Positions 11,039 to 56,322 of a stretch of DNA of 64,000 nt are shown here, in pieces. This DNA is from Calditrichota bacterium (GTDB lineage Bacteria; Calditrichota; Calditrichia; Calditrichales; J004). Under the pieces are notes generated by a model, which made no database searches, was not told the origin of the DNA, and saw only the letters and a program-made list of their open reading frames with translations. How positions within the stretch are numbered: the first letter of the stretch is position 1; each line of letters begins with the position of its first letter. The stretch is from NCBI GenBank assembly GCA_963723365.1, contig CAVRRG010000079.1, positions 1,382 to 65,381 of the forward strand, read 5' to 3'. The translations under genes were made by a program, and so were the position numbers.

Positions 11039-11043
11039 ACATA

Positions 11044-11057
11044 AATGTAATTACATT
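11044..11057. promoter_or_regulatory. Perfect 14-bp palindrome AATGTAATTACATT immediately upstream of mazE; candidate autoregulatory operator
   Basis: Read directly from the sequence. It lies 6 nt upstream of the mazE ATG, and a related half-site (AATTTACATGT) lies ~30 nt further upstream. Confidence 0.35.
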
Positions 11058-30228: not shown

Positions 30229-32517
30229 ATGAGTAAGCATCTCATAATAGTAGAATCACCAGCCAAAGCCAAAACCATAAACAAATATCTTGGAGAAGAC
30301 TTTAATGTTATTGCTTCATATGGCCATGTGCGCGATTTGATACCTAAAGAAGGGGCCGTTAATACAGATACATTTGAGATGAAGTATGAAAATGTTAAAA
30401 AAAATAAAAAATATATCGATCAGATTTTAAAAGCCGTTAAGAAAACAGATTCCATATATCTCGCTACTGACCCGGACCGCGAAGGTGAAGCCATTTCCTG
30501 GCATGTATATAATTTGATAAATGATAAAAAACTGCTTAAAGATAAACCAGTGCACCGTGTTGTTTTTTATGAAATAACAAAATCAGCAGTTACGGAAGCG
30601 GTCAATAACCCGCGAGAACTTTCCGAGGATTTAATAAATGCCCAGCAGGCACGACGCGCCCTGGATTATCTTGTCGGATTTAATTTATCCCCGTTATTGT
30701 GGCGCAAGATAAGAAGAGGCCTCTCCGCAGGCCGTGTGCAAAGCCCTGCTTTAAGACTCATTGTTGAAAGAGAGAAAGAGATTGAAGCTTTTAAACCTGT
30801 TGAATACTGGTCAGTGACAGCCGACTGTAAAAAAACAGATCAGACCTTTACAGCTAATCTTACCCGTTATAATGATGAAAAAGTCGGTCAGTTTTATGTT
30901 AAGACCGAAGAACAGTCAACCACTATCCGCCAGGATTTGTTGCAGAGCTCAAACGGGTATTAAAAGTTGCTAAAATTGAAAAGAAACAAAGAAGCAGAAG
31001 ACCGGCTCCCCCTTTTATTACATCAACTCTGCAGCAGGATGCTTCACGAAAATTTGGATTTTCAGCTCAGCGCACCATGCGCATTGCGCAACAGTTATAT
31101 GAAGGTATCGACATTGGCAGCGGTGAGGTGGGATTAATAACCTATATGCGTACGGATTCTGTTAGCTTATCACAACAGGCTATCGCTGAAATACGAAAAT
31201 ATATATCTGAAAAATTTGGAGCGGATAAACACCCCGAAAAACCCAATTTTTATAAAACAAAATCTAAAAATGCCCAGGAAGCACACGAAGCAATACGTCC
31301 CACATCTGCTTTTATAAATCCTGAATCGATAAAAAGCCACTTAACAGCAGACCAGTTAAAACTATATGGCCTTATCTGGAAACGGGCCGTTGCCAGCCAA
31401 ATGATACACGCGACTATTAATACTGTAGGTGTAGATTTTTCTTGCGGCGCACACAGTACCTTTAGAGCAACCGGTTCTACCATAGAAAAACCAGGCTATC
31501 TGCAGGTTTATAAAATAGCCGTGGACGATCCCGAAGAAAATAATGATGAAAAAATATTGCCTGTTTTTAAAGAAGGTGAATCAGTCTCTTTAAATGATAT
31601 TTTAAGCGAACAGCATTTTACAAAACCTCCTGGACGTTTCTCCGAAGCGACACTAATTAAATCGCTGGAAGAGTTTGGGATCGGCCGCCCTTCCACCTAC
31701 GCCTCTATAATTTCAACACTTACCTCCCGTGAGTATGTGGAGTTAGAAGCCCGGCGCTTTAAACCCACCGATATTGGTCGTGTTGTAAACAATTTTTTAA
31801 CCGAGCATTTTAAACAATATGTAGATTATGAATTTACCGCCAAACTCGAGGATCAGTTAGATGCTATTTCGCGCGGTGAAAGTAAATGGGTTCCTATAAT
31901 GAAAGAATTTTGGGATAACTTTCATGCACGCGTTGAAGAGAAACTAAAAATCCCCAGAAATGAAGTTGTCAAAGACCGCGTACTGGGAAATGATCCCCAA
32001 ACGGGTAAACCCTTATCCGTTCGAATGGGCCGCTATGGAGCAATGGCTCAAATTGGTTCTTCGGAAGAAGAAGAAAAGCCGGTCTATGCCAGCCTGCAAA
32101 AAGATCAAAGCATCGAAACAATTACATTTGAAGAAGCACTTAAATTATTTGATCTACCCCGCGAATTGGGAGAGAGTCAAAGAGGGCGAACCTATTTTTG
32201 CAAGTATTGGCCGTTATGGCCCCTATATTCGAATTGGCAAAAAGTTTATATCGATAAAACCGGAGGATCCTCATACTATCTCCCTGGAAAAAGCTTTGGA
32301 GTTTATTGAGAATGAATCAGAAAGAAAAAACAATAGCACCATAAATGAGTTTAAAGATGGGGAAATCCAGGTGCTGAGAGGCCGTTATGGTCCTTACATA
32401 AAAAGCGGCAAAATAAATGCGCGTATTCCCAAAAATAAAGATCCCGAAAAATTAACATTAGAAGAGTGTGAGGAATTAATAAAAATAAGCGCCGAAAGAA
32501 AAGGAAGAAAAAAATAA
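30229..32517 (+). CDS. topA: DNA topoisomerase I, split over three ORFs by two frameshifts (near 30955-30965 and 32165-32180)
   Basis: TOPRIM start MSKHLIIVESPAKAKTINKYLG. PAPPFITSTLQQDASRKFGF and ...MRIAQQLYEG... are read in the shifted frame. C-terminal GRYGPYI repeats follow. The first shift is consistent with one missing G in AACGGGTAT. Confidence 0.9.
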
Positions 32518-33080: not shown

Positions 33081-34774
33081 TTTTGAAAATTTAATTATTG
33101 AAACGTACATCTTCAACCGTAAGCTGCAGGCGTGGTGTTCCTCTAAAAACATTCATATTCATTTTAAAAGCAACATCATAATATGTATCTAGTTTTGATA
33201 ATATCTTTATACTCACCGCCGTTCCACCATAAACATTCAAAAATTTTATTTCCTTTTTGAATATAAAACTTCAAATGTCTTCCATAACTCATTTCGCGGA
33301 TTTCTTTTACCAGGCTTCTTTCCAATACCAATACAGGTTCAGGATTGGTTTCTCCAAAGGGACCGATTTCCTGAATATTGGCTGCTACATTTTCATTAAC
33401 CTGGTCGATATCAATTATCGAGTCTACTTCCATGCGCGGTGTTAAATCTGTGTCCGCCAATTGTTCATTTACATATTGCGTGAATTCCTGTTTAAAGACA
33501 CTAAAATTGGCAGGTATCACCGTAAGGCCCGCCGCTTTATGATGCCCGCCATAGGTCAGAAAATAATGATTAAATTTTGTTAATGCTTCTGTAACATGAA
33601 AGGCTTCTATACTGCGCGCAGAACCAACAAAATTTCCGTCACTATCCCTCGTAAAGGCCAGTGCCGGTCTGCTGTATTGCTCTTTCAATTTTCCCGATAC
33701 AAGTCCGATTAAGCCCGCCTGCCACTGTTCATTTTCAACAATAATTACTTTGTTGCCGTTTGCCCCGCTTTCACCTAATGACTCAAGCGCGTTTTCCAAA
33801 TAGCTTTGCTGCAGCAATTGTCTTTCGCGGTTTAAGCCATCCAACTCCAGTGCCAGCTGTTTGGCATGGCTGGCGCTCTCTTCTACGAGTAAATCAACAG
33901 CCAGAGCGGCATTATCCATTCTTCCTGCGGCGTTTAATCTGGGTGCCAGGAAAAACCCAACCGTGACAGGAGTAATAATATTTGTTTTAACACCACTGAT
34001 TTTTTTTAATTCGATTAATCCCGGTTTTTTTGTGCTTGCTAAAACTTTTAAACCAAATTTTACCAGGGCATAATTTTCATCGCGCAGAGGCATAACATCG
34101 GCAATAGTGCCCATTGCCACGAGATCCAGTTGTGAAAGCAAAAATAGTTTGTACTGCTCTTCCGTCATAAATTTCTGACTAAGGACAAATACCACCTTAA
34201 AGGCAACCGTTACACCACAAATGGCTTTAAAAGGATATTCAGAATCAACTCTGTTAGGATTTATGACAGCATGGGCCCGCGGCAGATCACCCTCTTGTAA
34301 ATGGTGGTCCGTAACTACAACATCTATTCCAAGAGAGGTTGCATAATCAATTGCATCATTAGCGCTGATACCATTGTCTACGGTAATAATCAGCCTGGCA
34401 GCCATCGCATTGGCTTTATCAACTCCAGCTTCCCGCAGTCCATAACCATCCCGTTCGCGGTGCGGAACTATGTATTGTACAGGATAATTTATTGCTCTAA
34501 AGAAATAAAGCATTATAGCTACAGACGTTACACCATCAACATCATAATCACCAAAGATTACTATTTTTTCATCATTCTCTATGGCTTTTAAAATACGCTG
34601 CACTCCTTTTTCCATGTCAGGAAGAAGATGCGGCGCGTGCATCCTGTCTGTGAGTTTAAAGGGCTCCAGGTGGTTTACAGGAAGGTCTCGATTCTCTAAA
34701 ACGACTTCTACTATTGATTTTGATGTGTCTGAATTATTGATCTTCCATAATTTTTGCGGTAGCGAAAGCTCCAT
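33081..34774 (-). CDS. recJ: Single-stranded-DNA-specific exonuclease RecJ, with one frameshift near 33185-33200
   Basis: DHH motifs (IFGDYDVDGVTS, DRERDGYGL, VVTDHH, GGHHKAAG). The C-terminal tail continues in another frame as DTYYDVAFKMNMNVFRGTPRLQLTVEDVRFNN*. Confidence 0.9.
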
Positions 34775-34909: not shown

Positions 34910-37878
34910 TTACATATTTTCTTTCATATAATTCAAAATTTCTCTTAGAAATGGTGAAGATTTTTGAATATGACCAAAACGGTTTTTGACGGCTATTAAT
35001 ATTACATCTTCTTTGGCCCTGGTGAGTCCAACATAGAGCAAACGCTTTTGCTCATCTATTTTTTTTGAAACGGATCTATCATCAAAATCATCGTCTCTGT
35101 AAGCATGATAACTGGGCATACTTTCATCTTCCATGCCCATAATAATAACTTTTTTAAACTCCAATCCTTTGGCCGCATGAAAAGTGAGCAGGGAAACAGC
35201 TGCAACCGAAGACAGGTTATCTTGCGGATTTATTAACATAATAACGGATAAAAATTCTGATATGGCTTTATCAATAACCAGCGCTTTAAAATCTGAAGCA
35301 ATTGTAAATAACTTATTTTTAAATTCATCCTTACTGTCATATAGCAATATACCCGGATATAATTCAAAAGCTTTTTTTGCTATTTTTTCTCTTAGCTCAT
35401 CTAGTGTAAAAACAAATTTCTCGCAATAAGCCTCCAGCAGATTTGAAAAGGGTGAAAGCAGCTTTTGGACGCCGGCTAAAAAGAATACTTTATCTTCATA
35501 CGCGCTTAATTTATCATCGATAAAATTAGCCAACGCGCAGTACTCAAATAAAAAGGTCCCCGCGGTTTTTCTTTTATCTTCCTTTTGTTTTGTCAATAAC
35601 CTCTGAAATATTAAATGAAGCACCTTTACATCATCCAGAGCCCGGTGCCTGGTTCCCGCATCAAAATTAAACTTAGTGGCCAGGGCATCAATAGAATTGC
35701 GATCATCCGGAAACATCTGTCGAGCAAAAACGAGAGAATCATAGCGTACATTTTGCAGCTTACGGTTATCGATTTTCAATGCAAAGCGGTCTATTATCCT
35801 GAAATCAAAAGCATAGCCATTATGTGCGATGAGGATATCTTCCCCCAGAAAAGCCATAAACTCCGGCCACACTTTTTCCAAACGTGGCGCGCTTAAAATT
35901 TCTTCATTGGATATGTTGTGCACCTCTTGAGCCTCTTTCTCAACCATCATTTCAGGATTTACAAGTGTCTGATAACTATCGATTATTTCTCTGTCCCTGA
36001 TTCTGACCGCTGCTATTTCAACAATTCCACATTCATCGCTATTGCGTCCTGTCGTTTCAAGATCAAAAACCACATAATCCTTAAATGGATCTTCTTCTCC
36101 CACAATCCAATTTTGACAAAAACGCACAAGAGAGGAAAAACCCGAATCCCGTTTTTCGATAGCCGTATTAAAAAGGTCAAGTGTTTCTGTGTTGAGGGGA
36201 AACTTGCACTCTTCCAACAAAATCACTTTGTCTTTTTTGCCTATTTCCTCTTTGTTTTCTTTTCTTAATTCGAAAACTTCCTCTTTGAAATGGGTCAGCA
36301 TTGTTTGAGCAATATATTTTACATGAACATTTTCGTGGTAAATCCATATTTTGTTTTTCTCATTGAAGTAATTTTTTTGAGGGTGCGTAAAAAAATCTGA
36401 AAACCTGGCAGCTTTTTCCTCAATATAAGATTTGTCCAGATTTTGCAGTCCATCCAATATCAAACGCAAAAGCTGATCAAAGTTGTAGAACGTTTTTAAG
36501 TTTATAAGATTGGCTAAATTGCCTATAAATGTTTCCAGCTGTCGTCTTAATTCCTCATTTATTTCCGGCCTTTTGCTCAACTCATATAATGCTTTTCGAT
36601 AACCGCATTTTAAAGTGTTTTGCAGATTTTGAATTTGTTTGTTGCTGTTATAGCCCAGCTCAAGTTCAACAAGTTCCTGTAAGATGAGCGTATCAAGTGG
36701 ATCCCTGATAATCTGCAGGTAAAGCAATACCTTTTTCATTTGCGGATCATCTGAAAAATTCCTGCCCGCCGACTGCTGAAAAGGAATCCTCTCCGCCAGC
36801 AATTGCAGAGACAGCTTTTCCGCAAATACATGACGGGGATAAAGAACCGCTATTTCGTTTAGCGGGATTTTCTCACTTTCCCTCCAGTTCATAATTTTTT
36901 GCAAAATGAAATTAATTTCCTCTTCTTCGGTGTCAAAAAATTGATACTGCACAGAATCCTTAACAGGTTCTACCGCTTTCAGGATTTTATCCGCTTCAAT
37001 TCGTTCTGTCTGCATAACAACCGAAGTGGCTGTATCAATAATTTTTTGTCCGGAACGGTAATTTATATCCAGAAATATTGGTTCGGAGATATTATAATCT
37101 TCTATAAACGTATTTATATTTTCAGGATTTGCGCCACGCCAGGCATAGATAGACTGATCATCATCGGCCACAACAAAAATATTTTTATGCTTATGGGCCA
37201 GCATTTTAATTATATCATACTGTACCAGGTCTGTATCCTGAAATTCATCGACATGAATAGCTTTATATAAGAAGGCGTATTGATCACAAATATCACTATT
37301 GTCGCTAAGCAGAGACCGCGTAAGAACCAGAATCTGATTAAAGTCTATTAATTTATGTTTTTGCAGATGTGCATTATACTTTTCATAAATCAGAGCTGTA
37401 AAGGGCGGCATCGGTTTTTGATGCATTATAAAATGGCTGATAGCCGTTTCAATGCCTTTTACGACATTGCCAATTCCGGATCTCACTTTTTCTGAAACCA
37501 GTGAGGTCAGCAGGGCAGATTGATAGTTTGCATCACATATAGAAAAATATTCATGCAAGCCCGGCCTTTTTATAATACTTTCTAAGTATTTCCAGGCAAA
37601 AGCTGTGAATAGTAGCACGCCTTTATTGTGCTCAGCTTAGAATTGAAAAGCTCCTCAAGGCGCTTATTAATCTCCCTTGAGGCTTTATTACTAAAAGTGA
37701 GCGCAAGAATATGTTCTTCCGCAATTTTAAAGTGTTGTATTTGATATGCTATGCGGGCAATTAAAGTGCGTGTTTTTCCTGTTCCAGGTCCGGCCAGCAT
37801 TAGAACCGGGACCCGGGGTTTTGTAACCGCCAGAACCTGTTTTTTATTTAAAGTGCTTAAAAGTTTATTAATCTGCAT
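34910..37878 (-). CDS. UvrD/PcrA-family SF1 helicase with a DEDDh (DnaQ-like) 3'-5' exonuclease domain inserted between helicase motifs IV and V. One frameshift near 37610-37630
   Basis: Motif I MLAGPGTGKT, LTFSNKASREI, motif II HVDEFQDT, motif III VVADDDQSIYAWRGA, YRSG. Exonuclease block at 35594-36076 (VVFDLETTG...IAHNGYAFDF...RHRALDDV). Motifs V/VI FHAAKGLEF...LLYVGLTRAK. Confidence 0.85.
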
Positions 37879-37940: not shown

Positions 37941-38402
37941 TTAGTTTAATGAAATGTTTTTATCAGCTAGTATGGCACCCAGTTGGGTAAATTGAATATC
38001 AAATTTATCAGAGTCGCGCATTTTTTTAAAGCGTTGACGACTCTCCCTTTTTTTATCCGAATGGTACACCTCTGCAAAGTCGATAATTAGCTTGTATTTT
38101 TGCAATTCAGCAAGAGGAATGGGGTCACCGAGAATAATGGCATCTGTATCGGGATAATATTCAGAATCACTGAAGATTAAAACCGATTCGGAAATTTCAG
38201 GAGTTCCTGAGGAAATAATTTGATGAGGTATAAAACTCTCCTGCTTCCATGTCCAAAGCTGATTGTCAATTTGAGAAGAACTGCTTTTTGTAAAAATACT
38301 AAGGGCTATGTCATTGTGAAAGAGTTTTTCCGCTATTTCGCAGATATATTTATTTTTGGCTGAAATTTTGAGTTCTACAAAAAAGACGATGGGTTTTTTC
38401 AT
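37941..38402 (-). CDS. holC: DNA polymerase III chi subunit-like protein
   Basis: The pattern ...YICEIAEKLF....I.....S.SSQIDNQLWTWKQESFIPHQI parallels E. coli HolC ...VCEIAAERW...LDEALWARPAESFVPHNL. The size (153 aa) also fits. Confidence 0.65.
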   Translation of the reverse strand: MKKPIVFFVELKISAKNKYICEIAEKLFHNDIALSIFTKSSSSQIDNQLWTWKQESFIPHQIISSGTPEISESVLIFSDSEYYPDTDAIILGDPIPLAELQKYKLIIDFAEVYHSDKKRESRQRFKKMRDSDKFDIQFTQLGAILADKNISLN

Positions 38403-39019
38403 TAAAACCTTTGTCCGATTTCAAAACGAATATCAATCATGGAGTGGTCTTTAGTTTCTCCGAGCTGCTTAATAAATGGCATAAAACGATACTGTGTTCT
38501 AAAACCGACATAATATCCGCCATCAACATCTGCATCGATACCCAACCCTATCATTCCGGCGATAATCCATTCATCCTGGTTCGACAATTTAATTCCGGTA
38601 AAGGCATCATCTTCCGGGAAATTGACACCGTATAAAGGACCGATACCACCAAAAACATAAGGTCTGAAGCTATCATCAAAACTTGTTACAAATAATCTCT
38701 TCTTGGCCGAAACCATTAAATCGAACAGAAAAACATTATTCCTTTTATTAAAAGTTATGGGTTGTCCAAAATAATTAATCGTTTCCAGCTGATTCTTATC
38801 GCGCACCATAATAATGTCAAAGTTAAATCCCACATGCCAGAAATTTTCAGAAAGGGGTATTTCGTAAAATATACCTAATCCTGATCCTGTTTCAAGCAAA
38901 CTGTACACAAAACCCCTATGATCCAGAATGATTGGTTCGGGGTCTTTTTCAATATACTCTTCAAATTGACCAAAACAGAAAACGGGAATTAATAAAAGAA
39001 AAATGTTTACTGACTTCAT
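38402..39019 (-). CDS. Small outer-membrane beta-barrel-like protein
   Basis: Signal peptide, alternating amphipathic strands, C-terminal ...RFEIGQRF (terminal Phe). 1-nt overlap with the holC-like gene. Confidence 0.5.
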   Translation of the reverse strand: MKSVNIFLLLIPVFCFGQFEEYIEKDPEPIILDHRGFVYSLLETGSGLGIFYEIPLSENFWHVGFNFDIIMVRDKNQLETINYFGQPITFNKRNNVFLFDLMVSAKKRLFVTSFDDSFRPYVFGGIGPLYGVNFPEDDAFTGIKLSNQDEWIIAGMIGLGIDADVDGGYYVGFRTQYRFMPFIKQLGETKDHSMIDIRFEIGQRF

Positions 39020-39306: not shown

Positions 39307-39717
39307 TCATCTGAAAATATTTTTAATAGCACCCCAGGTTTTAAATAAACCGCTTATATTTGGATGAACGACCATGGCCCCATCCGGGGTTGTCTCTTTC
39401 ACAGTTCCAGAGGCTCCTATAGCTTCGATTTTGTAATAAACTAAATTGCCATTCTTGAAGAACACATTTTCGTCTGTATAGCTATATTGATATCCCGGTC
39501 CCATAGGATTTATTCTATTTAACTCAACATAGGAATTTTGATAATCATTACTGCGTTTAATCACGAAATATTGAATTTCGGATTCTTTATCGGTGACCCA
39601 GGTAATGGTTACCCTGTTCGACTCCGGCTGGGCGTTAAACTCTTTAAATATTTCAGTTGTAGCAAATACCACAGAGAGGAATATAATGAAGAAAAAAAAT
39701 GTTAAATGTTTTTTCAT
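39307..39717 (-). CDS. Small secreted single Fn3-like domain protein
   Basis: Signal peptide. The motif F.A.P..NRVTITWVTDKESEIQYFVIKRS is the same module type as at nt 1-249. A hairpin plus T-run lies downstream (about 39255-39285). Confidence 0.5.
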   Translation of the reverse strand: MKKHLTFFFFIIFLSVVFATTEIFKEFNAQPESNRVTITWVTDKESEIQYFVIKRSNDYQNSYVELNRINPMGPGYQYSYTDENVFFKNGNLVYYKIEAIGASGTVKETTPDGAMVVHPNISGLFKTWGAIKNIFR

Positions 39718-39962
39718 TTATTTACAGGTTATTAACAACACTAAACCAATATACATTATTGATATTTTAAAGCAAGATTTATTTACTCCGGAGCCCTGAA
39801 AATATGAAGCACTATAAGTTGTCGCTGATGCCTGACAACGCTGAAAAAAATTATTGAGCAGTGATCTCTTTGTGATATGTTGAGCTTAAAATTTATTCGA
39901 TTTAAATAAAATAACAATACAAATCATGTAACTAAATAACAACCAACCGTTCGGAGGTATGA

Positions 39963-40496
39963 ATGAACAGATTTTCTAAACTTTTAACCCTTGTTGCTTT
40001 TGCGGGTTTAATTGCGTTTTTAACAGCTAATGTAACTGCAACTAATTCCTCACTGAATTTAGATGCTGCTTTTGAAGCTGCGGCTTTTGATGTTGATGTT
40101 TCAAAGTGTGACAGCGGCAAAGAAAAAGGCCAAAAAGCTGCTAAAGGTGAAGCTAAAGAAGCTAAATGTGGCGAAGGCAAATGTGGTGAAGGTAAAGCTA
40201 CCAAAAGCGATGCCAAAGTCGAAGGTAAAGAAGCCAAATGTGGCGAAGGCAAATGTGGTGAAGGTAAAGCTACCAAAAGCGATGCCAAAGTCGAAGGTAA
40301 AGAAGCCAAATGCGGCGAAGGCAAATGTGGTGAAGGAAAAGCTGCCAAAGTCGAAGGTAAAGAAGCCAAAGTTGAAGGCAAATGTGGCGAAGGTAAATGC
40401 GGTGAAGGTAAGAAAGCTGTTGAAGGCGAAGCCAAAAAAGCCAAAGGCGAAGGTAAATGTGGTGAAGGTAAATGCGGCGAAGGTAAGTGTGGTTAA
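39963..40496 (+). CDS. Secreted low-complexity Cys-repeat peptide (KCGEGKCGEGK x5), HvfA/oxazolin-like RiPP metallophore precursor candidate
   Basis: Sec-type signal (LLTLVAFAGLIAFLTANVTA). Eleven CGEGK motifs in a K/E/G/A background. Strong GGAGG RBS 7 nt upstream. Strong terminator immediately downstream. Confidence 0.7.
   Translation: MNRFSKLLTLVAFAGLIAFLTANVTATNSSLNLDAAFEAAAFDVDVSKCDSGKEKGQKAAKGEAKEAKCGEGKCGEGKATKSDAKVEGKEAKCGEGKCGEGKATKSDAKVEGKEAKCGEGKCGEGKAAKVEGKEAKVEGKCGEGKCGEGKKAVEGEAKKAKGEGKCGEGKCGEGKCG
40158..40301 (+). repeat. Two tandem 72-bp units (71/72 identical) encoding EAKCGEGKCGEGKATKSDAKVEGK, within a wider degenerate repeat tract (~40140-40496)
   Basis: Direct comparison of 40158-40229 with 40230-40301. 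The single difference is gct vs gcc. Confidence 0.9.
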
Positions 40497-40521
40497 TCAT
40501 TTCATTCCGTAACAAATTAAA

Positions 40522-40555
40522 GCGTAGATAAATTATTATCTGCGCTTTTTTTTTT
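40522..40555 (+). terminator. Strong rho-independent terminator: 10-bp stem GCGTAGATAA/TTATCTGCGC (one G-U pair), 4-nt loop, T10
   Basis: Read directly. It starts 26 nt after the stop codon of the Cys-repeat peptide gene. Confidence 0.85.
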
Positions 40556-40639
40556 AATATTAACTTATTTATTATATTGCCGAATAATATTTTGAATCTT
40601 ATCACATAAAAAGTTATTAATCATATTAGGAGGCAAGTT

Positions 40640-41200
40640 ATGAAACTAGTTACAACCCTATTCATTTTTTCACTGTTTGCGACAACAAGTTTATTTGCCC
40701 AGACAAATCTTTCCATTGGAATACACTCAGGCATCCTGTTTTCTGCATTTGAAGACCAGGAAGAAACCCAGACTGCTATACCGGTAGGTGGATACCTTGG
40801 AGCGCAGGTTTCTGAAAGTGTAGAGTTGGGAGCTGAATTTAGTACTGTATTAGTGCCCTTTGAAGAGAAATTTTTAGGAGAAACTTTTTCCTCTACCCAA
40901 CTCGCATTTGGCGGCTATATAAGAGTTTATTTCCCGATGGAAAGCATTGTGCCTTATATAAGAGGCGGGGTAGGATACTACACAGGTGCGATTGAAATTG
41001 ATAGTGATTTTGGCGGTTTGGATTTTGACTATAATGGCAATGTTGGTTTTAATGTGGGTGCCGGATTTGGAACTGAATCAGGTTTTTATGTAGAATTTAT
41101 CTACCACATTGTTTCGCAAGAGCTTAAAGATTTCGATGGTGATGCCTTTGGTGTGAATAATTTTGGCGGACATGTAGGTTATGCTTTTTCAATTAATTAA
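40640..41200 (+). CDS. Small outer-membrane beta-barrel protein (OmpW/OMP_b-brl-like)
   Basis: Signal peptide (FIFSLFATTSLFAQ). Gly/aromatic-rich alternating strands. AGGAGG RBS. Confidence 0.6.
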   Translation: MKLVTTLFIFSLFATTSLFAQTNLSIGIHSGILFSAFEDQEETQTAIPVGGYLGAQVSESVELGAEFSTVLVPFEEKFLGETFSSTQLAFGGYIRVYFPMESIVPYIRGGVGYYTGAIEIDSDFGGLDFDYNGNVGFNVGAGFGTESGFYVEFIYHIVSQELKDFDGDAFGVNNFGGHVGYAFSIN

Positions 41201-41233
41201 TTAACAGATAGATAATTAAATCAGGAGGTAAAG

Positions 41234-41746
41234 ATGTATAAAGGATTAACTGTGTTATTTTTAGTATTAGGATTCACAACTTTTTCAGTGGCTCAAAATA
41301 TTGGGCTTATGAGTGTTGCACCGAAAGTTTCTCTTATTTTACCACAAGAAACTGGCTTGGAAACCGGCTTTGGTTTTGGTGCTGCGGCAAACTTAGGTGA
41401 AGTGGCCGATGGTATTGGCTTATTTCCCTTTATTGTCTATGAAATACCCGGATCTGAATTTTCCGGGGTTGACATCTCAAATATACAGATTGGAGCAGAT
41501 GTTCATTATGGTGTTGCCGAAAATATCTATGTCGGTGGCGGTGTATCTGTAAACCTTTTTAGTTCAGAAGTTGATTTAGGCCCATTTGGTACTGTTGATG
41601 CCGATGAAACGGAATTTGGTATTTCTGTTCTTGGTGGTTATGATTTTAATATATCAGATATGAATGCTGCCGCGGAAGCACGGTACGATATAATTAGCAA
41701 TTACAACCATCTGGAAGTTTCTGTATTAGTATACTTCCCAATGTAA
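41234..41746 (+). CDS. Small outer-membrane beta-barrel protein, similar type to the preceding gene
   Basis: Signal peptide (VLFLVLGFTTFSVAQ), alternating beta-strand pattern, AGGAGG RBS. Confidence 0.6.
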   Translation: MYKGLTVLFLVLGFTTFSVAQNIGLMSVAPKVSLILPQETGLETGFGFGAAANLGEVADGIGLFPFIVYEIPGSEFSGVDISNIQIGADVHYGVAENIYVGGGVSVNLFSSEVDLGPFGTVDADETEFGISVLGGYDFNISDMNAAAEARYDIISNYNHLEVSVLVYFPM

Positions 41747-41767
41747 TTTTTTATTTAATAATCAATA

Positions 41768-41789
41768 AAGGCTGCCTCTGTGCAGCCTT
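41768..41789. terminator. Bidirectional terminator hairpin (AAGGCTGC/GCAGCCTT) between convergent genes
   Basis: Read directly. Flanked by an A-rich run upstream and a T-rich run downstream. Confidence 0.7.
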
Positions 41790-41792
41790 TTC

Positions 41793-42293
41793 TTATTTTA
41801 ATGCCTGTAAAGCTTTTTCATAATCCGGTTCCTGCCCTATTTGTGGAACCTGCTCCGTGTAAACAACATTTCCATTTTCGTCGACTACAACAACGGACCT
41901 GGAAAACAAACCCTCCCAGGACCCGTCAGCGATCATAACACCATAATCTTTTCCAAACGAGCGCGTGCGCATTGCTGAAAGACTGGTGACATTATCAATA
42001 CCCTCAGCCTCACAAAAAGAGTGGAGTGAAAAAGGTAAATCTACTGAAATACATAAAACAGCTGTATTTTCCAGATTGGCGGCTTCCTGGTTAAAGCGTC
42101 TCACAGAGGCTGAACAGACCCCGGTGGCGATGCTTGGAAATATATTTAATAATATCTTTTTCCCGGAAAAATCGCTTAAGGACACATCTTTAAAATCTGT
42201 TGTTGTTAATCTAAAATCAGGTGCTTTACTGCCAATCGCCGGTAAATCACCAACCGTACTAATTTGATTTTCACCAAGCTTGATATTTGCCAT
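41793..42293 (-). CDS. tpx: Thiol peroxidase (atypical 2-Cys peroxiredoxin)
   Basis: GSKAPDF.L......V.L.DF.GK...LNIFPSI.TGVC.ASVR.FN...VLCIS.DLPF...FC.AEG is near-collinear with E. coli Tpx. Confidence 0.9.
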   Translation of the reverse strand: MANIKLGENQISTVGDLPAIGSKAPDFRLTTTDFKDVSLSDFSGKKILLNIFPSIATGVCSASVRRFNQEAANLENTAVLCISVDLPFSLHSFCEAEGIDNVTSLSAMRTRSFGKDYGVMIADGSWEGLFSRSVVVVDENGNVVYTEQVPQIGQEPDYEKALQALK

Positions 42294-42314: not shown

Positions 42315-43076
42315 TTAACCAATTTTATCTTTATCTAAAATAAATGATTCAAATTCTTTATATAATTGTAATTGTAGTTTTTCAAAACTGCTGGCACCGT
42401 ATGTTGACACTACAACTTCTAAATCTACCAAATTATTCTTTTCAGACTTTTTAATTATATGCGGAACCAAATGAGAGGCATGCCATGGGGAATTTAAAAT
42501 ACTTTTTCTTATTTTATCAATTACCCCCTCCAATAGCTGATGTGAAGATACCTTTAATACAAACTTATGCGTGCTCACCATTTTATTTTCATTTTTATTT
42601 ACATGTATGTTGCTGGTAATCTTGCTGTAGGGAATTTTTAAAACAGCGCCATCCTGTTCCTGAACTTCAATATTCAGGTATCCTAATTTTGAAATTTTGC
42701 CCTTTACGTCACCCACAGAAAGTTGATGGCCTGTGGCATAAATATCCTGTGCTCTTAAAATAATACCAGCCACATAGTCACGTGCCCCAAACCAACCAAT
42801 CCAGATGAGCCCAATAATTGAAATTGTCATAAAAAAAACTGTAAAATAAAATGTATCATTAAATATTTGTCCCAGCGACCAATAAATAAACGCCAGCCAA
42901 ACAATCATTTCAAACGCCGGAAAATATCTTTGATAACCGATGTTCGTTTTATATCTCATCTCCAAAATTCTCAGGGATTTGAGCAATAACCTTAATACAA
43001 TAAAAACAATGATACCAACAACAAGAACTTGAATTACAGCCCATTGCTGCCAATTATTTGCTACTAGTTGCCCCAT
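42315..43076 (-). CDS. MscS-family (small mechanosensitive channel-like) membrane protein
   Basis: Three or four N-terminal TM segments, then ARDYVAGIILRAQDIYATGHQLSVGDVKGKISKLGYLNIEVQEQDGAVLKIPYSKI (MscS pore-helix/beta-domain pattern). The start overlaps the upstream gene by 13 nt. Confidence 0.6.
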   Translation of the reverse strand: MGQLVANNWQQWAVIQVLVVGIIVFIVLRLLLKSLRILEMRYKTNIGYQRYFPAFEMIVWLAFIYWSLGQIFNDTFYFTVFFMTISIIGLIWIGWFGARDYVAGIILRAQDIYATGHQLSVGDVKGKISKLGYLNIEVQEQDGAVLKIPYSKITSNIHVNKNENKMVSTHKFVLKVSSHQLLEGVIDKIRKSILNSPWHASHLVPHIIKKSEKNNLVDLEVVVSTYGASSFEKLQLQLYKEFESFILDKDKIG

Positions 43077-46000
43077 ATCATGCCCATCCTGGAGAATTGA
43101 TTAACAAATAAATGTTCAATAAAAGGATTAATCCTTAAACTGTTATTTGGTCCTTTAACCACAAAACCACTTCTCTGTAAAGCCTCAATGGTCTGCTTTG
43201 TAGATTTTTCAGTGCTATTAAAAATTCTACGTAATCGCGCTATAGTCAATTCTTTGTGCAATACAAATTGTGTCAGCCAAATATTCCATTCATTTTCCAC
43301 AGATAAAAGGATCTCCCAATCGAGTTTGGGTAATTTCTTTAATTCAATCGTGTCATTAGTGAAATCCTCAATCATGATAAGCCAGCTTAAAAGTGATACA
43401 CCGATCGATCCCACTGAATATTTGAAAATATCATTAAAAATACCGGCTTTACGAATGTCCGACATTTGATCTTCCAGCCTGTTTTGGTAAACGAAGTTAA
43501 GACCAGTTGAGCTATGCCTGTGCAGAATGGCGGTTTCAATTTCTTTTGCATTAAAAGGTTCAACATTTATAACACCCACAAAACTTTTTTCAATATTTTG
43601 AATATTATTAATCAGGCGGTATGAAAATGAATTAATGTTAAGTATAAAAAACACCTTTTTACCAAAAGTATCTATCAGGTTTAAGATGATGTCAATTATT
43701 TGGAATCCTGAAGCACTCCTCTCCCACCACATCTCCAGATCATTGATTATAACTGTGCTATGCGGCGCTAAACCTTTAATAATCTGCTCCACACTACCAG
43801 AGCGGTTTGTACCTTCAGCGAGAGCTTTATTAAAATGTTCAGGATTAATAGATCCTCCCGATTTTGGATTTACCCAAAAAACATTTTCAGCATCAAAATA
43901 GCTGTGAGCGATATTCCTGCTTAATGCTGTTTTCCCTGAACGAGGTTCTCCTTTTATAAGTAAGGCCCCTGAAAAGCCTTCTTTATATCTTTTGTAAATT
44001 CTTTCCGCGCGGTCTATCAATGTTTTTTTAGAGACCAGAAATTGACTGCTTATCGAGCTCTCACCCGAGAATAATTGTTTATAATAACGGGGCAGGGTGT
44101 TTATAACTTCACTATCCGGAGAATAATTTTGTGTAAAGGTGATCATCATGTCAATAGAACCGGTTTGCTTCTCCTCCAGCTTATTTAACCTGCGGGCAAA
44201 TAGTATTCCTTCACTTTTGCTGTATTGTAAATTGACGGCCAGTCTTTGAATAAAGCCGTAAATGTTCTGCTTGGTTTTTTCGAGACCGCTCAATACTTTG
44301 CGTTGCTCTTGAGAAAAAATATACTGTTTTAGATTATTGGTTGTATGCGTAATCAGGTAGGGACTCAAACTGTCAAACGTTGAGCGCAGTCTTTTGTAAG
44401 CGTATTTCTGCAATTCTTCCAGTAAAGATTCAATTTTTTCTTTACTATCAGAGAGCCGTCTTACTCCATGGCCAATTAAATGGTCTAAGTCTTCTTCCTC
44501 GGAAAGAGCATCCATTTTGAGTGGGTTCTCGGCATTACTTACACTGGCCACAATTAATCTTTGCGTATCCTCAATGGCGACCACTGCTTCTTTTAATCCG
44601 CTGTTAAATACCAGTACTTCATCATTTAAGTCCTGTAAAAATTCAGTATCCACCAAATAAGTGACCAGTCTTTTTAAATAAACGGATACAATATCCTGCT
44701 CTTCAAATTGGTTCTCCTCCAACGCTTTGAAAGAACCTTCACTCATCACTTCTATTATTTCTGGTAACTCTTTTATATAATTTTGAACTTCACCCGACAA
44801 GACTGCAGTATCAGCACCTAATTCAATCGATTTTGTATCCTCTGCTACCACAAGTTTTTTAAGATTTTCCGGTTTCTGATTATTAATATAATTATTAAAT
44901 AGCGACTCTATCGGCTCAAAATAAACATTGAGCGTTTCATTGATTAAGTTTTCAAGATTATCAACCCATTTATACAACAACAGGCGCAGCCTGTTTTTAA
45001 ACAAAATCAGGGTCAACTCCATTTCGGCAAAATCAATCATCAGCAACATATTTTGGGACCACTGCCCGGATAGTGATAACAGTTTTTCTTCTTGAATACT
45101 GGTTTTCTTTAAACGGAAATTTTTGCGGATAATACTATTTACCTGAACTAAATTGAAGGTCTTTATCTTGTTCTGAAAACTTTGGTGATGCGCGGCAGTA
45201 AAACTATTTACAACCTTGGCAAAACTCGATTCAACATCATCACAATATTTATTGAATAAAGTGGTTATGGAGGATACTGACTCCTCTATTCTTTTTTTAC
45301 TTAAAGTGTTGTTGTCAAGCGTATAATTTTCAAGGTTTCTTAAGACATCCTGCACCCGGCTAAAGATTTTTTGGAGTTCTGAAATACTATCATAACCAAT
45401 TAAGCCAATTTGTTTAACATGCTGTAATAGCTGCATCCTTAAAAATCCGTTTATATGATGTCTCAAAAACATCTTTATCTTAATTGGAACTTTGATATCC
45501 GATTTAAAGATTTTATTGTTGATAAGTTTTTTAGTTTTAAAAAACTTAACGGAAGTGGGGTCCTTCATATTTATAGCAATTGCTTCCCTGTCAAAAAGGG
45601 CTGTCTCTGTTTCGGGACAACTATTCAAGATCTCGTTATGGACAAATATTATATTTTCAATGCCGTTCCCGAGGCTCTCTTTTAAATGCTGCATATTCTC
45701 ATTTTTAAACGTTTGCAGAAGTTTTTGACTATTGGTAAACGATTCTCGCTGCAAACGTGTAATCAATTTAACAATGCGTTTTGTATCCAGGGCTTTAAGA
45801 TTTTTTGATAAAAGCTGAAAACTATTTATAATTTGTGATTCGATTTTCCTGCCGAGGTCTTTGAAGTCCTGTTCAATCTCCAATATATAACTGCGATAGA
45901 ATTCATTTAACGAGTCGTTAATCTGATTATGAATTGTTAATACCCGTTCTGCTAACATCTCGTCTTTAGGCAGTTCAATTGCTGTATGTTCTGTTTTTGC

Positions 46001-48205
46001 CTTTTCCAGTGTAGATTTAACCTGGCTCTCAACAACGCGTTCTATGCCTATATAATAGGGTTCAAAATAGGAGGAGGCACTTAAGAAGAGAACTGTTTTT
46101 AAATCCTTAGTCAGCCTGTTTGTTTTGCGGATAAATTCACCACCTTCGTTTGCAAGGTCCGGTAAACCAATCATTGTCAAATCTGAATCACTGGATTCTA
46201 TTCTCAAGATTTCGTTAAAACTTCTTTTTTCGATGGAATTATTTATAATTTTTACTTCAGCTTCCTGTCGTAAATTTTGTAATAAACGCAGCATGTTACT
46301 GTTTACTTTATTTACCAATGCACTATCATCAATAATAATCAGGATGCGGATTTTTGCCTCTTTCCATTCATCCGAAGAATGCATAAAGCGCAATATAGAA
46401 AGAGCAAGTGCCGCATTATTACTTCCTCCCCGCCACCAAACATCTATTGTTTTAAAAGATTTTGAATCTTTAACAGCCGTTTGATCCAGTAAAAGAATAT
46501 TGTAATCCAATGACATCAGTTTGCTAAACAGAGAAACTGCTTTGTCTGGCTGTTCTGACTTTCGAGGCCAGCCTAACAGAACTGTATTAGGTTCAACTCC
46601 TGAGAATCCGTAAAACTGAGAAACAGATTCTATACCATCATAAATATTTACACATTCATATCTGCGGTGGAAAATACCCGTACTGTCTGTATTTTCTTTT
46701 TTTACCTGTTGCGCTGCTTTGGTAAATTTTAGATTGCCATTGTCCGTTTCGACCAGTTCAAAATCTGAAATGATGCCTACTTTCCCGACAATTGCTTTTC
46801 CAAAATCCAGCAGGTGCGATCTGCTATCCACAGCTCCACGGAATAATAATAAATTAGGACTCCAGTTACGTTTATGTATTACAAACTCATTTAATTTGTG
46901 CAGCCCTGTGCGCACAACAGAAGACCAAAAACTTCCCCAGGTGTCGCCCGATTCCAGCGTTAATTCTTTTCTTTTAAGAAAAATGTAAATAAGCGACAGG
47001 ATAAGTGTTGCTCCAATAAAGGCCAAAACATCCAGTTCAAACATTATAATAGCGCAGGCCAGGGCCCCGGTGACACCAACCCAAATAGGGACTTTAAAAG
47101 ATGGTCTAAAATCAGTGCTGGCCCAGGATTCCAGAGCGTAACTTAAGTTTATCAATCCATACGTACTGAGAAAGAATATCGATACAATACGTGCAATCAC
47201 ATTTAAATCACCAATAAGGATGCCTGTTTCAGCAATCAGGAAAGTAAAAAAAAGTGCGCGCCGCGGCTCATTTAAACCACCGCTTCCTTTTGAGAAAAAC
47301 TTAGGTGTAATCTTATCTTTGGAGGTTGCCTGCAGTATACGCGGTGCACCCAACATACTGCCCATGGCCGAAGATATGGTAGCTCCCCAAATTCCTGCTA
47401 TCACCAATTGCGAATTCCAGGCCACTTCTGCCAAAATATTCGGGTTAGCTATTAATTGCTCAACTTGAATATTGTAAGCTATAAATATAGCAAGGAAAAT
47501 ATATATGATAAATCCAATACCAATTGCGGATATTGTTCCAAAAGGAATTGACTTTTTGGGATCTTTGAGATCTCCTGACATTTGCACACCGGCGGTAAAA
47601 CCTGTTACAGCCGGGAAGAAAATCGCAAATATAACAAATAAACTTTCACCATTCGCTACCGGGTTTAAAACAACTTGCTGTTGGGTTAATTCGTTTCCTC
47701 CTAAAAAAATTGAAACTATGGAAAGAACCACTGCGGCGAGTATTAAATATTGTGTTTTTATGGCCAGCGACGTACTTACAAAGACAATAATGGTTAGGAT
47801 AACAATGCTTATCGATCCGTAGATTTGAATAGTTTCTTTTGTAATGGCGATATCCAGGACAGAAAGCAGGCTCTCCGTGAAACCGATAATATATAAACTG
47901 ATACTGAAAGAAAGCCCGACAAAAAGTGCAATACCCAATGTCCCGCCAATGGGCAGCCCCATGCTGCGGGAAATAATATAATAATTGCCGCCTGCTTCCA
48001 CCTTTTTATCAGTGGCAATACTAGAGACACTTAAGCCGGTTGTGATTGAAACAATGTGAGCAACTACTATTATACCGATAGTATAAAATAAACCACCCTG
48101 CGCGACAATCCAGGGCAGACGCAAATACATAATTACGCCTAAAATGGTTAGCAGTGATGGTACAAAAACGCCGCCAAAGGTTCCGAACTTTCTAGTCTTT
48201 GCCAA
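43064..48205 (-). CDS. Fusion protein: SLC12/cation-chloride-cotransporter-type APC permease with its C-terminal domain, a ~650-aa helical region of unknown function, a P-loop ATPase, and a winged-helix-like C-terminus
   Basis: N-terminal FGTFGGVFVPSLLTILGVIMYLRLPWIVAQGG, GGNYYIISRSMG and 12 TM segments. Walker A LIKGEPRSGKTAL (nt 43921-43960). Walker B-like STVIINDLE. A single uninterrupted 5.1-kb ORF. Confidence 0.8.
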   Translation of the reverse strand: MAKTRKFGTFGGVFVPSLLTILGVIMYLRLPWIVAQGGLFYTIGIIVVAHIVSITTGLSVSSIATDKKVEAGGNYYIISRSMGLPIGGTLGIALFVGLSFSISLYIIGFTESLLSVLDIAITKETIQIYGSISIVILTIIVFVSTSLAIKTQYLILAAVVLSIVSIFLGGNELTQQQVVLNPVANGESLFVIFAIFFPAVTGFTAGVQMSGDLKDPKKSIPFGTISAIGIGFIIYIFLAIFIAYNIQVEQLIANPNILAEVAWNSQLVIAGIWGATISSAMGSMLGAPRILQATSKDKITPKFFSKGSGGLNEPRRALFFTFLIAETGILIGDLNVIARIVSIFFLSTYGLINLSYALESWASTDFRPSFKVPIWVGVTGALACAIIMFELDVLAFIGATLILSLIYIFLKRKELTLESGDTWGSFWSSVVRTGLHKLNEFVIHKRNWSPNLLLFRGAVDSRSHLLDFGKAIVGKVGIISDFELVETDNGNLKFTKAAQQVKKENTDSTGIFHRRYECVNIYDGIESVSQFYGFSGVEPNTVLLGWPRKSEQPDKAVSLFSKLMSLDYNILLLDQTAVKDSKSFKTIDVWWRGGSNNAALALSILRFMHSSDEWKEAKIRILIIIDDSALVNKVNSNMLRLLQNLRQEAEVKIINNSIEKRSFNEILRIESSDSDLTMIGLPDLANEGGEFIRKTNRLTKDLKTVLFLSASSYFEPYYIGIERVVESQVKSTLEKAKTEHTAIELPKDEMLAERVLTIHNQINDSLNEFYRSYILEIEQDFKDLGRKIESQIINSFQLLSKNLKALDTKRIVKLITRLQRESFTNSQKLLQTFKNENMQHLKESLGNGIENIIFVHNEILNSCPETETALFDREAIAINMKDPTSVKFFKTKKLINNKIFKSDIKVPIKIKMFLRHHINGFLRMQLLQHVKQIGLIGYDSISELQKIFSRVQDVLRNLENYTLDNNTLSKKRIEESVSSITTLFNKYCDDVESSFAKVVNSFTAAHHQSFQNKIKTFNLVQVNSIIRKNFRLKKTSIQEEKLLSLSGQWSQNMLLMIDFAEMELTLILFKNRLRLLLYKWVDNLENLINETLNVYFEPIESLFNNYINNQKPENLKKLVVAEDTKSIELGADTAVLSGEVQNYIKELPEIIEVMSEGSFKALEENQFEEQDIVSVYLKRLVTYLVDTEFLQDLNDEVLVFNSGLKEAVVAIEDTQRLIVASVSNAENPLKMDALSEEEDLDHLIGHGVRRLSDSKEKIESLLEELQKYAYKRLRSTFDSLSPYLITHTTNNLKQYIFSQEQRKVLSGLEKTKQNIYGFIQRLAVNLQYSKSEGILFARRLNKLEEKQTGSIDMMITFTQNYSPDSEVINTLPRYYKQLFSGESSISSQFLVSKKTLIDRAERIYKRYKEGFSGALLIKGEPRSGKTALSRNIAHSYFDAENVFWVNPKSGGSINPEHFNKALAEGTNRSGSVEQIIKGLAPHSTVIINDLEMWWERSASGFQIIDIILNLIDTFGKKVFFILNINSFSYRLINNIQNIEKSFVGVINVEPFNAKEIETAILHRHSSTGLNFVYQNRLEDQMSDIRKAGIFNDIFKYSVGSIGVSLLSWLIMIEDFTNDTIELKKLPKLDWEILLSVENEWNIWLTQFVLHKELTIARLRRIFNSTEKSTKQTIEALQRSGFVVKGPNNSLRINPFIEHLFVNQFSRMGMIWGN

Positions 48206-55198: not shown

Positions 55199-56218
55199 CT
55201 AGCCACCTATTTGAGCCATTGATATATTGCCGTTCAAAGATCGGCTTTCTGATTCAAATCCATCTTTTGCGCGTTTCATAACCGCTTGAACAATTTTCTT
55301 CCTGATCTCTTCGTCCGCTGCACCTGCCCGCAGCAGTTGTTTGAGGTTTAAAGCAATTCTGTCGTATAAGCAGGTTTTTAACATACCGTCTGCCGTTAAA
55401 CGAAGCCTATTGCATGCTCCGCAAAAAGAACGCGAATATCCGGCTATGATCCCAATCCTACCCTGATAACCTTTAATATTAAATATCCTGGCAGTTGAAG
55501 TGACATCTGTTATTTGCGGAGTAAGTTTATATTCTTTTTCTAATCTGGATTCAATTTGATCTGCTGTGATAATATTTGAATCAAATTGTCCACCACTAAA
55601 TGGCATCTGTTCAATAAATCGAACTTCAATGGGATAATTTTTTGTTAATTCACAAAAGGCAAGTATTTCATCTTCGTTTATACCGGCCATTACGACCATG
55701 TTTATTTTAACGGGTAAACGTAAAGAGATGGCTTGCTGCAAGTTAGTGTAAACAACATTAAAATCATCACGCCGTGTGATTTGAAAGAATTTATCTTTAT
55801 TTAATGAATCCAGGCTGATATTCAGGCTGCCTAACTTGAGGAAATTAAATTCTTTCAAATGCTCGGATATAAGGACTGCATTTGTTGTGAGATTGAGAGA
55901 ATTTATTTTTTCTTTTGCATTTACGCTCTTTATGAAATCAAACGCTCCTTTTCTTACAAAAGGCTCGCCACCTGTTATTCTAATTTTATTGATACCTAAA
56001 GCAAGAAATATTTCAATACTGCGATCCATCTCTTCATATGATAAAAGATGTTGGCGACTTTTTAAAGGAATTCCTTCGGCAGGCATACAATAGGTACAAC
56101 GCAAATTACACCTTTCTGTAATAGCCAATCGCAGGTAATCCAATTTTCTGCCAAATGGATCTGTTAATGAAAAATGTTCAGGTACGCTATGAGACTGAAT
56201 TCGTGACACTGAATCCAT
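55199..56218 (-). CDS. moaA: GTP 3',8-cyclase MoaA (radical SAM). Start reassigned to the ATG at 56218
   Basis: FGRKLDYLRLAITERCNLRCTYCMP, C-terminal CGACNRLRLTADG...GG. The longer track ORF (to 56296) would run through the riboswitch. Confidence 0.9.
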   Translation of the reverse strand: MDSVSRIQSHSVPEHFSLTDPFGRKLDYLRLAITERCNLRCTYCMPAEGIPLKSRQHLLSYEEMDRSIEIFLALGINKIRITGGEPFVRKGAFDFIKSVNAKEKINSLNLTTNAVLISEHLKEFNFLKLGSLNISLDSLNKDKFFQITRRDDFNVVYTNLQQAISLRLPVKINMVVMAGINEDEILAFCELTKNYPIEVRFIEQMPFSGGQFDSNIITADQIESRLEKEYKLTPQITDVTSTARIFNIKGYQGRIGIIAGYSRSFCGACNRLRLTADGMLKTCLYDRIALNLKQLLRAGAADEEIRKKIVQAVMKRAKDGFESESRSLNGNISMAQIGG

Positions 56219-56220
56219 GG

Positions 56221-56322
56221 CACTCCTTTCCAAGTACGGGAGGCTATGCTGTTTCCGGCACAACCCTGTCGGCATTAAACCATTGCCTTCCGGCAAGAAG
56301 GTTTTTCAGCTCGGAGTTTATA
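56221..56322 (-). promoter_or_regulatory. Moco (molybdenum cofactor) riboswitch in the moaA leader
   Basis: The minus strand reads aaaCUCCGAGCug...GCCGGAAGGC...AUGCCgacaggguugUGCCGGAAACagcauAGCCUCCCguacuuGGAAAGGAGugccAUG. The CCGAGC, AGCCUCCC and GGAAAGGAG blocks are as I recall them from the Moco RNA motif, with the RBS inside the closing helix. Confidence 0.7.

Follow-up and report, generated by a model that had tools for sequence, protein, structure and literature searches.

A stand-alone HvfA-family cysteine-repeat peptide gene at a conserved site in Calditrichota

The peptide gene and its product

This analysis concerned a 64-kb stretch of DNA from an uncultured Calditrichota bacterium (64,000 nucleotides, hereafter the window), in which a gene for a 177-aa peptide with repeated Lys-Cys-Gly motifs is followed by two small outer membrane (OM) β-barrel genes and by a convergent thiol peroxidase gene, tpx. 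The features of the locus are listed in Table 1. Six other Calditrichota loci carrying the peptide gene were available for comparison, namely L008, L012, L016 (3' end of the gene only), L027, L028/P0001 and L090.

Table 1. Positions of the features at the peptide locus of the window, with the upstream repeat sites in related loci
Feature	Position	Strand	Description and basis
Conserved upstream block	39846..39895	+	AAAAAT, direct repeat GTGAT-N6-GTGATA (39861-39877), then CTTAAAATTT
GTGAT-N6-GTGATA sites	window 39861-39877; L008 9258-9274; L012 20049-20065 (-); L027 282-298; L028 262-278		
Shine-Dalgarno sequence	39953..39957	+	GGAGG, 5 nt ahead of ATG; read from sequence
HvfA-family Cys-repeat peptide coding sequence	39963..40496	+	177 aa, stop included; open reading frame call, NF050137 match
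Sec-type signal peptide	39963..40040	+	residues 1-26, MNRFSK / LLTLVAFAGLIAFLTA / NVTA, then TN; sequence inspection
Cys-repeat region	40164..40493	+	residues 68-177; five KCGEGKCGEGK modules, K/E/A linkers between
Intrinsic terminator	40519..40558	+	13-pair stem, 4-nt loop (hairpin 40519-40548), T run
Small OM β-barrel gene 1	40640..41200	+	186 aa, 8-stranded; own AGGAGG at 40628-40633; AlphaFold2, Foldseek
Small OM β-barrel gene 2	41234..41746	+	170 aa; own AGGAGG at 41223-41228; weak Pfam matches
Bidirectional terminator hairpin	41767..41790	.	between barrel gene 2 and convergent tpx
Thiol peroxidase gene tpx	41793..42293	-	conserved convergent neighbour; NF001808, 228.7 bits (cutoff 123)

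The n-, h- and c-regions of the signal peptide and its VTA-T cleavage site were legible by inspection, and a lipobox was absent. The mature part is dominated by Lys, Gly, Glu and Ala (34, 31, 24 and 21 of 150 residues, respectively), confirming the K/E/G/A-rich sequence behind a signal peptide that an initial annotation of the window had described. The KCGEGKCGEGK pairing with a C-terminal extension proposed there was also borne out, with five pairs, the last of which reaches KCGEGKCGEGKCG at the C-terminus. However, the eleven CGEGK motifs reported earlier proved to be 10 plus a terminal KCG, so that eleven is the number of KCG motifs. Eight EGKCG motifs and 12 Cys residues, including C49, were counted.

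Tandem Repeats Finder detected a period of 72 bp (24 residues) with 3.7 copies in the peptide gene. The tandem 72-bp unit of the initial annotation is real, but its identity was given as 71/72, whereas the best register yields a perfect duplication (72/72). The segment from 40164 to 40240 is exactly identical to that from 40236 to 40312, which points to a recent tandem duplication. Synonymous codon differences were present between the other modules, and the repeats are therefore not a simple artefact.

Elsewhere the contig has imperfect base-level accuracy. Compared with the intact orthologues in L008, topA (30229-32517, frames 1/3/1) and a uvrD-like gene (34910-37878, frames -2/-3/-1) are split across reading frames, and the tail of recJ is frame-shifted at its 3' end (33103-33231), which indicates indel errors or pseudogenes in the contig. 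These defects would favor the idea that the repeat number is an assembly artefact. It is opposed by the synonymous differences just described, which argue for real, selected repeats, and by the orthologues, whose module numbers are comparable yet different. We consider such an artefact highly improbable. The peptide open reading frame (ORF) itself is intact, though its exact repeat number is provisional. The peptide gene is the only KCG-rich ORF in the window. A reverse-strand ORF (39932-40444, -) and an alternative-frame ORF (40063-40512, +) were set aside as shadow frames that arise from the repeat, as they had no signal peptide, ribosome-binding site (RBS) or conserved orthologues.

The AlphaFold2 model, calculated from a shallow alignment of 14 sequences, contained one confidently predicted part, a helix of residues 3-30. 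No confident fold was obtained for the mature peptide, and the predicted local distance difference test (pLDDT) score stayed under 50 from residue 38 onward. The mature chain is thus predicted to be disordered.

Family assignment

The peptide scored 45.9 bits against the NCBIfam model NF050137 (KCGExKCG_twice, HvfA-family domain; cutoff 19.5), with four matched stretches. The orthologues in L008, L012 and L027 also passed this cutoff, while P0001, the closest homologue of the peptide, fell below it. The HvfA equivalog model NF050188 has a cutoff of 95 bits; the peptide reached 39 bits and its orthologues 31-38 bits. Judged by these scores, the window peptide is a member of the HvfA / Buf_EGKCG ('oxazolin') family, and the assignment to this family is correct, but it is not a strict HvfA orthologue. 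The HvfA/oxazolin class named in the initial annotation therefore stands at the level of the domain model and fails at that of the equivalog. A database search returned 962 homologues, several of which bear the UniRef name 'HvfA family oxazolone/thioamide-modified RiPP metallophore', where RiPP denotes a peptide that is made by the ribosome and modified after translation; many have the Joint Genome Institute (JGI) name 'uncharacterized low-complexity protein'. The NCBI annotation pipeline takes protein names from NCBIfam models. Since NF050137 is passed, the NCBI label would be that of an HvfA-family metallophore.

In this family a Sec signal peptide takes the place of a RiPP leader, and sequence inspection revealed one here. 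A multinuclear iron enzyme (MNIO) gene adjacent to the precursor gene, which is also typical, was absent from the 64 kb, and an adjacent DUF2063/HvfC gene, often accompanied by DoxX, was absent from the window, L008 and L012. The lack of an adjacent MNIO gene does not exclude membership, because the published description of the family accepts stand-alone members. The Buf_EGKCG 'type 1' proteins are defined by a 17-residue period and a confident β-helix; the corresponding values here were a 24-residue period and a pLDDT below 50.

HvfA of nontypeable Haemophilus influenzae, encoded in the operon doxX-hvfA-hvfB-hvfC, resembles the window peptide in its Sec signal peptide and its repeated (A)EGKCGEGKCG pairs, and Cu(I) binding is presumed, by analogy, to be shared. 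The two differ in several respects. HvfA has 95 aa and three modules, whereas the window peptide has 177 aa and five modules with 13-residue K/E/A linkers. The Cys38/Cys43 disulfide pair in the N-terminal part of HvfA is absent from the window peptide, which has a single Cys49 instead. HvfA sits with hvfB, hvfC and doxX, none of which accompanies the window peptide in 64 kb, and it belongs to Pseudomonadota rather than Calditrichota.

We also considered that the peptide might be an ordinary low-complexity periplasmic protein with no metal role, whose likeness to HvfA is compositional. The equivalog score (39 versus 95 bits), the predicted disorder of the mature part and the failure of the closest homologue P0001 to reach the domain model are all compatible with this. 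However, NF050137 was exceeded by more than 25 bits over four matched stretches, and the exact CGEGKCG pairs are kept in orthologues amid drift elsewhere, which makes a purely compositional likeness highly improbable as well.

Search for maturation genes and conservation of the locus

Pfam scans of all ORFs of at least 120 aa found no MNIO/DUF692 (PF05114), DUF2063/HvfC or DoxX gene in the window. Six-frame phmmer searches of the same sequence with Shewanella HvfB, HvfC and a DoxX protein gave nothing at E <= 1. As a positive control, profiles built iteratively from the HvfB, HvfC and DoxX queries recovered MNIO genes in 50 other loci, so the negative result in the window is meaningful. The earlier statement that none of the three genes occurs in these 64 kb was confirmed by both kinds of search. 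In the six other Calditrichota loci, no MNIO gene was present in the sequence examined. We found nothing in the literature linking Calditrichota to MNIO or HvfA, and no Calditrichota appear among the rows listed in the part of the supplementary genome table of PMC12452194 that we consulted.

The lineage of the window is reflected in its other genes. Its HtpG is 80-81% identical to proteins of Calditrichota metagenome-assembled genomes (MAGs), and the presence of Por_Secre_tail (type IX secretion) domains is in keeping with a member of the FCB phyla. In L008, which lies on a 247-kb JGI contig, the order topA-recJ-uvrD-holC-omp-p136-[peptide]-barrels-tpx-mscS-1713-aa permease is the same as in the window, the order being kept from topA to dsrE, and a 159-aa orthologue of the peptide occupies the equivalent place. 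L012, a Calditrichales chromosome, encodes a 141-aa orthologue and has a solute:sodium symporter gene inserted before barrel gene 1; the part of the block from p136 to the permease is kept there, with insertions. The same symporter insertion is found in L016, whose contig has at its edge the last part of the peptide gene (3' end, …KCGEGKCGN*) together with a hairpin. Downstream of the peptide gene, L027 has a gene for a different OM-type protein of 252 aa and then tpx, and L090 has barrel gene 2 alone. Because the orthologues share this syntenic position, the peptide gene is an old, vertically kept resident of a chromosomal block. The CGEGKCG core is invariant across orthologues that have diverged by ~50%, with free variation in the linkers. 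In the Calditrichota loci compared, the peptide gene has no conserved enzyme gene next to it. On this comparative evidence, the gene truly stands alone at this locus and the lineage has conserved that state, yet it is a recognised arrangement for the family.

Stand-alone precursors in other lineages

The initial annotation treated the orphan state as unusual, but stand-alone precursors proved not to be particularly unusual. A 2025 survey of the MNIO landscape counted 2583 complete genomes with a Buf_EGKCG gene, of which 2516 also had an MNIO gene somewhere and 67 had none (PMC12452194, Table 3). Single-gene precursor units with no neighbouring MNIO were described there, and the authors left open modification in trans or no modification at all. 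The window gene resembles these units in being a single-gene precursor with no neighbouring MNIO. It differs in that the surveyed family is mostly from Pseudomonadota, whereas here the gene stands alone at one syntenic Calditrichota site with a lineage-specific upstream element. In our own metagenome survey of 50 HvfA-family loci with at least 1.5 kb of downstream sequence, MNIO was directly downstream in 35 and no adjacent MNIO was seen in 15. Of the 27 loci for which 5 kb or more of downstream sequence was available, 8 had no MNIO.

Some of the surveyed loci deserve separate description. One MNIO-less, gammaproteobacterial-looking clade (L021-L026, L029-L032, L036, L039, L049 and L054; GC 0.36-0.40) encodes stand-alone HvfA proteins with up to 20 Cys residues. 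In most of its loci the precursor gene is flanked by tonB/exbBD/TPR genes on one side and by apt-dnaX-ybaB on the other; the neighbours differ in L032 and L049. Shewanella (L006) has the order hvfA-MNIO-hvfC just upstream of apt-dnaX. Since the Shewanella genes adjoin the same apt-dnaX pair, local loss or relocation of the maturase genes is suggested for this clade.

The Bacteroidota-like relatives L001, L003 and L076 are also stand-alone. L001 (10001-13538, from the Bacteroidota-like MAG GCA_054013155.1) contains an HvfA-like gene, a Gluconate_2-dh3-like gene, a GMC oxidoreductase gene and DoxX, with no MNIO within 10 kb on either side. The GMC oxidoreductase and DoxX were considered as an alternative cluster and rejected, as the combination was confined to L001 and L002, which have the same protein. 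In L003 (9020-10444), the sequence directly upstream of the HvfA-like gene contains an extracytoplasmic function (ECF) sigma factor gene together with a 100-aa ORF, which recall the sigma/anti-sigma pairs of bufferin clusters. The HvfA-family proteins of L076 (9794-10168) and L078 (1652-2095) have lipoprotein-type signal peptides (…LTSCGGG) and acidic linkers, and no MNIO was found within 10 kb in L076.

Expression signals and the conserved upstream element

The strong GGAGG RBS that had been reported ahead of the peptide gene was located. In the window, L008, L012 and L027 it stands immediately before the start codon, and L028 aligns poorly in this region. The terminator after the gene has the strong stem and T run described earlier, but the stem comprises 13 pairs instead of 10 bp. 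By eye, a hairpin and T run were also seen past the end of the truncated peptide gene in L016, and an imperfect hairpin past the gene in L008. This strong terminator and the separate RBSs of the neighbours agree with the monocistronic arrangement proposed in the initial annotation. From the conserved upstream element together with the terminator, the peptide gene looks like its own transcription unit.

The upstream element was recognised in alignments of three, and later five, orthologous Calditrichota regions, which comprise all the loci with upstream sequence. The pattern AAAAAT…GTGAT-N6-GTGATA…CTA(A/T)(A/T)ATTTG was common to all five (window, L008, L012, L027 and L028), and the direct repeat is situated ~85-105 bp before the start codon of the peptide gene. 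Exact GTGAT-N6-GTGATA matches occurred once in the window, once in each orthologous locus, and at one other site in ~1 Mb of fetched loci. The element may serve as an operator for a regulator, and we regard it as a candidate. The 11-bp register of the direct repeat suggests a dimeric regulator on one face of the helix. A scan with Rfam found no RNA element near the peptide gene.

Barrel genes and other neighbours

The two barrel genes and their AGGAGG RBSs were found as had been described. The model of barrel 1 had a pLDDT of 87, and its best PDB matches by Foldseek were the OmpA transmembrane domain, OmpX, Ail and NspA (E 1e-7 to 1e-6); PF13505 is present in some of its homologues. Barrel 2 is 24% identical to barrel 1 in alignment and has weak Pfam matches to Autotransporter, OmpA_membrane and Opacity. 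The small 8-stranded OM barrel fold with a signal peptide was thus recognised in barrel 1 by the model; for barrel 2 a barrel of this kind is suggested by the weak Pfam matches. Barrel 2 is conserved in L008, L012, L016 and L090, and tpx adjoins the locus in L008, L012, L016 and L027.

A different partner set for the peptide was considered, in which the barrels act in OM export or anchoring, or an unrelated oxidoreductase acts as the maturase. A gene for a small OM protein does lie downstream of the peptide gene in six loci (window, L008, L012, L016, L027 and L090), and in L001 the peptide gene is followed by Gluconate_2-dh3, GMC oxidoreductase and DoxX genes. However, a strong terminator and separate RBSs come between the peptide and barrel genes. 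The OM protein genes vary in identity and number, being replaced or reduced in relatives, and L012 and L016 have an additional transporter gene in between. A barrel homologue with 38% identity occurs in an unrelated context (L018) with no peptide gene in 16.6 kb. Moreover, 8-stranded barrels such as those of the OmpX/OmpA class lack a channel that would suit a chain of 15 kDa. As for an oxidoreductase, no enzyme is conserved in the neighbourhood, and the GMC/DoxX arrangement is limited to L001 and L002. These observations speak against the barrels as partners and make a different partner set very unlikely. From the gene order, the barrel genes and tpx are syntenic neighbours of the peptide gene, habitual but variable, and form no biosynthetic cluster.

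On the other side of the peptide gene, a secreted 136-aa protein of no recognised family (p136; 39307-39717, -), which ends in …HPNISGLFKTWGAIKNIFR, and a 205-aa protein resembling an OM barrel (38402-39019, -) are conserved upstream in L008 and L012. Beyond tpx, a 1713-aa protein (43064-48205, -) combines an amino-acid-permease/SLC12-like domain with a very long C-terminal part that has a weak AAA-type match. Proteins with 33-48% identity to this fusion occur in Calditrichales and Bacteroidota MAGs, the best match (48%) being in the Calditrichales chromosome L012.

Other features of the window

A molybdenum cofactor (Moco) riboswitch (RF01055; 56207-56328, -) was recognised with 69 bits, the gathering score being 36. 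It precedes a moaA-like gene and several molybdopterin genes in a row (moaE, ThiF/MoeB-like and MobA-like). The riboswitch overlaps the listed TTG start of the ORF at 55199-56296, and the true start of this ORF is therefore probably further downstream. Two likely toxin-antitoxin pairs were noted. One consists of an AbiEii-family nucleotidyltransferase gene and an upstream 170-aa ORF (24987-26198, -), and the other, recognised by eye, of a PemK/MazF-like toxin ORF that overlaps a small AbrB/MazE-like ORF (10461-11050, -).

Proposed function

It is established for the family that every Cys in the EGKCG pairs is converted by HvfB and HvfC and that one Cu(I) is bound by two of the modified residues (PMC11252979). 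The modification, in which each Cys loses 4 Da, has since been reassigned to 5-thiooxazole by the same laboratory (10.64898/2026.07.17.739211), which supersedes the oxazolone/thioamide chemistry cited in the initial annotation. HvfBC modifies HvfA from which the signal peptide or the N-terminal region has been removed (PMC11252979), so that modification in trans is feasible and needs no locus-specific leader.

Our preferred reading, to which we assign a probability of about 50%, is that the product is a stand-alone HvfA-family peptide, an exported chelator of soft metals (Cu(I)) with about five sites that is expressed alone under a regulated promoter and matured in trans. An HvfB-type MNIO and HvfC, both encoded elsewhere in the genome, would turn the Cys residues into 5-thiooxazoles in the cytoplasm, a step that we judge about evenly balanced. 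The peptide would then be exported, and each Cys pair could chelate one Cu(I) or another soft metal ion. By analogy with HvfA, it might buffer or scavenge metal in the periplasm or as a secreted protein, taking up ~5-6 ions, and the candidate operator GTGAT-N6-GTGATA may make its expression stress-inducible.

Several observations weigh against this reading. MNIO, HvfC and DoxX were not found in the 64-kb window, nor in L008 (20.6 kb), L012 (25.1 kb) or L016 (10.2 kb). There was likewise no adjacent MNIO in the window, L008, L012, L027 or the Bacteroidota-like loci L001, L003 and L076, and a lineage that owns MNIO enzymes might be expected to show the operon linkage at least sometimes. The 24-residue, predicted disordered unit departs from the described 17-residue β-helix type. 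Both metal binding and modification rest entirely on the analogy with H. influenzae HvfA. In addition, MNIO enzymes require O2, a point whose weight hinges on the oxygen physiology of the host.

The alternative that has to be taken most seriously is a peptide that stays unmodified at all times because HvfB and HvfC are lacking in Calditrichota, and perhaps in FCB bacteria related to them. It would then be a disordered, exported chain, metallothionein-like, whose free thiolates bind Cu(I) or other soft metals, or a periplasmic thiol redox buffer alongside Tpx. We judge this less likely than not. It would explain why no MNIO was seen in the sequence examined of the six other Calditrichota loci or of L001, L003 and L076, and it is consistent with Tpx as the most constant neighbour. 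HvfA binds ~2-3 Cu(I) even when unmodified (PMC11252979). The 67 of 2583 genomes with no MNIO, and the 'not modified' option raised by the authors of that survey, point the same way (PMC12452194). However, MNIO is present in 97% of the precursor-bearing genomes (PMC12452194), and the oxidising periplasm would tend to turn free thiols into disulfides. Beyond the Cys residues alone, the entire CGEGKCG motif is strictly conserved across phyla, which fits enzyme recognition and metal geometry equally. Finally, in the part of the PMC12452194 supplement that we consulted, the entries for Cytophaga hutchinsonii (Bacteroidota) comprise a single gene each for DUF692 and DUF2063 along with three for DoxX, three of these entries having consecutive accessions, which indicates that FCB bacteria can own the maturase machinery.

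Known copper proteins provide partial parallels for both possibilities. Bufferins (Buf1/DUF2282 and Buf2, made by BufB, an MNIO, and BufC) are RiPP metallophores that resemble the window peptide in Sec export and in the presence of Cys residues. They buffer periplasmic copper via 5-thiooxazoles, and their clusters often include DoxX and, for Buf1, sigma/anti-sigma genes. Unlike the low-complexity repeat chain described here, they consist of small folded domains in which Cys residues are few, and no sequence relationship between the two was found. Metallothioneins and the Csp copper storage proteins, with their high Cys density and closely spaced Cys pairs, provide a model for the unmodified peptide. 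Csp proteins fold into four-helix bundles and metallothioneins reside in the cytosol, whereas the window peptide would be exported, is predicted to be disordered and is rich in Lys and Glu, so the analogy is functional only.

Should maturation in trans not apply, we would tentatively extend the idea to the lineage as a whole. Calditrichota, and possibly other FCB lineages, might keep HvfA-type peptides with no MNIO/HvfC anywhere, either as unmodified, exported, disordered thiolate buffers or with a maturation that does not involve MNIO, under a lineage-specific regulator acting at GTGAT-N6-GTGATA; the case for this falls short of an even one.

Taken together, the locus extends a mostly proteobacterial family of copper peptides to Calditrichota and reveals no new mechanism. 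The conserved candidate operator offers a handle for seeking the inducing signal. If these peptides are indeed kept across the entire phylum in the absence of the iron enzyme, their repeat motif would function independently of thiooxazole formation, and such an unmodified branch would bear on the evolution of oxazolins and bufferins and on the role of unmodified HvfA.

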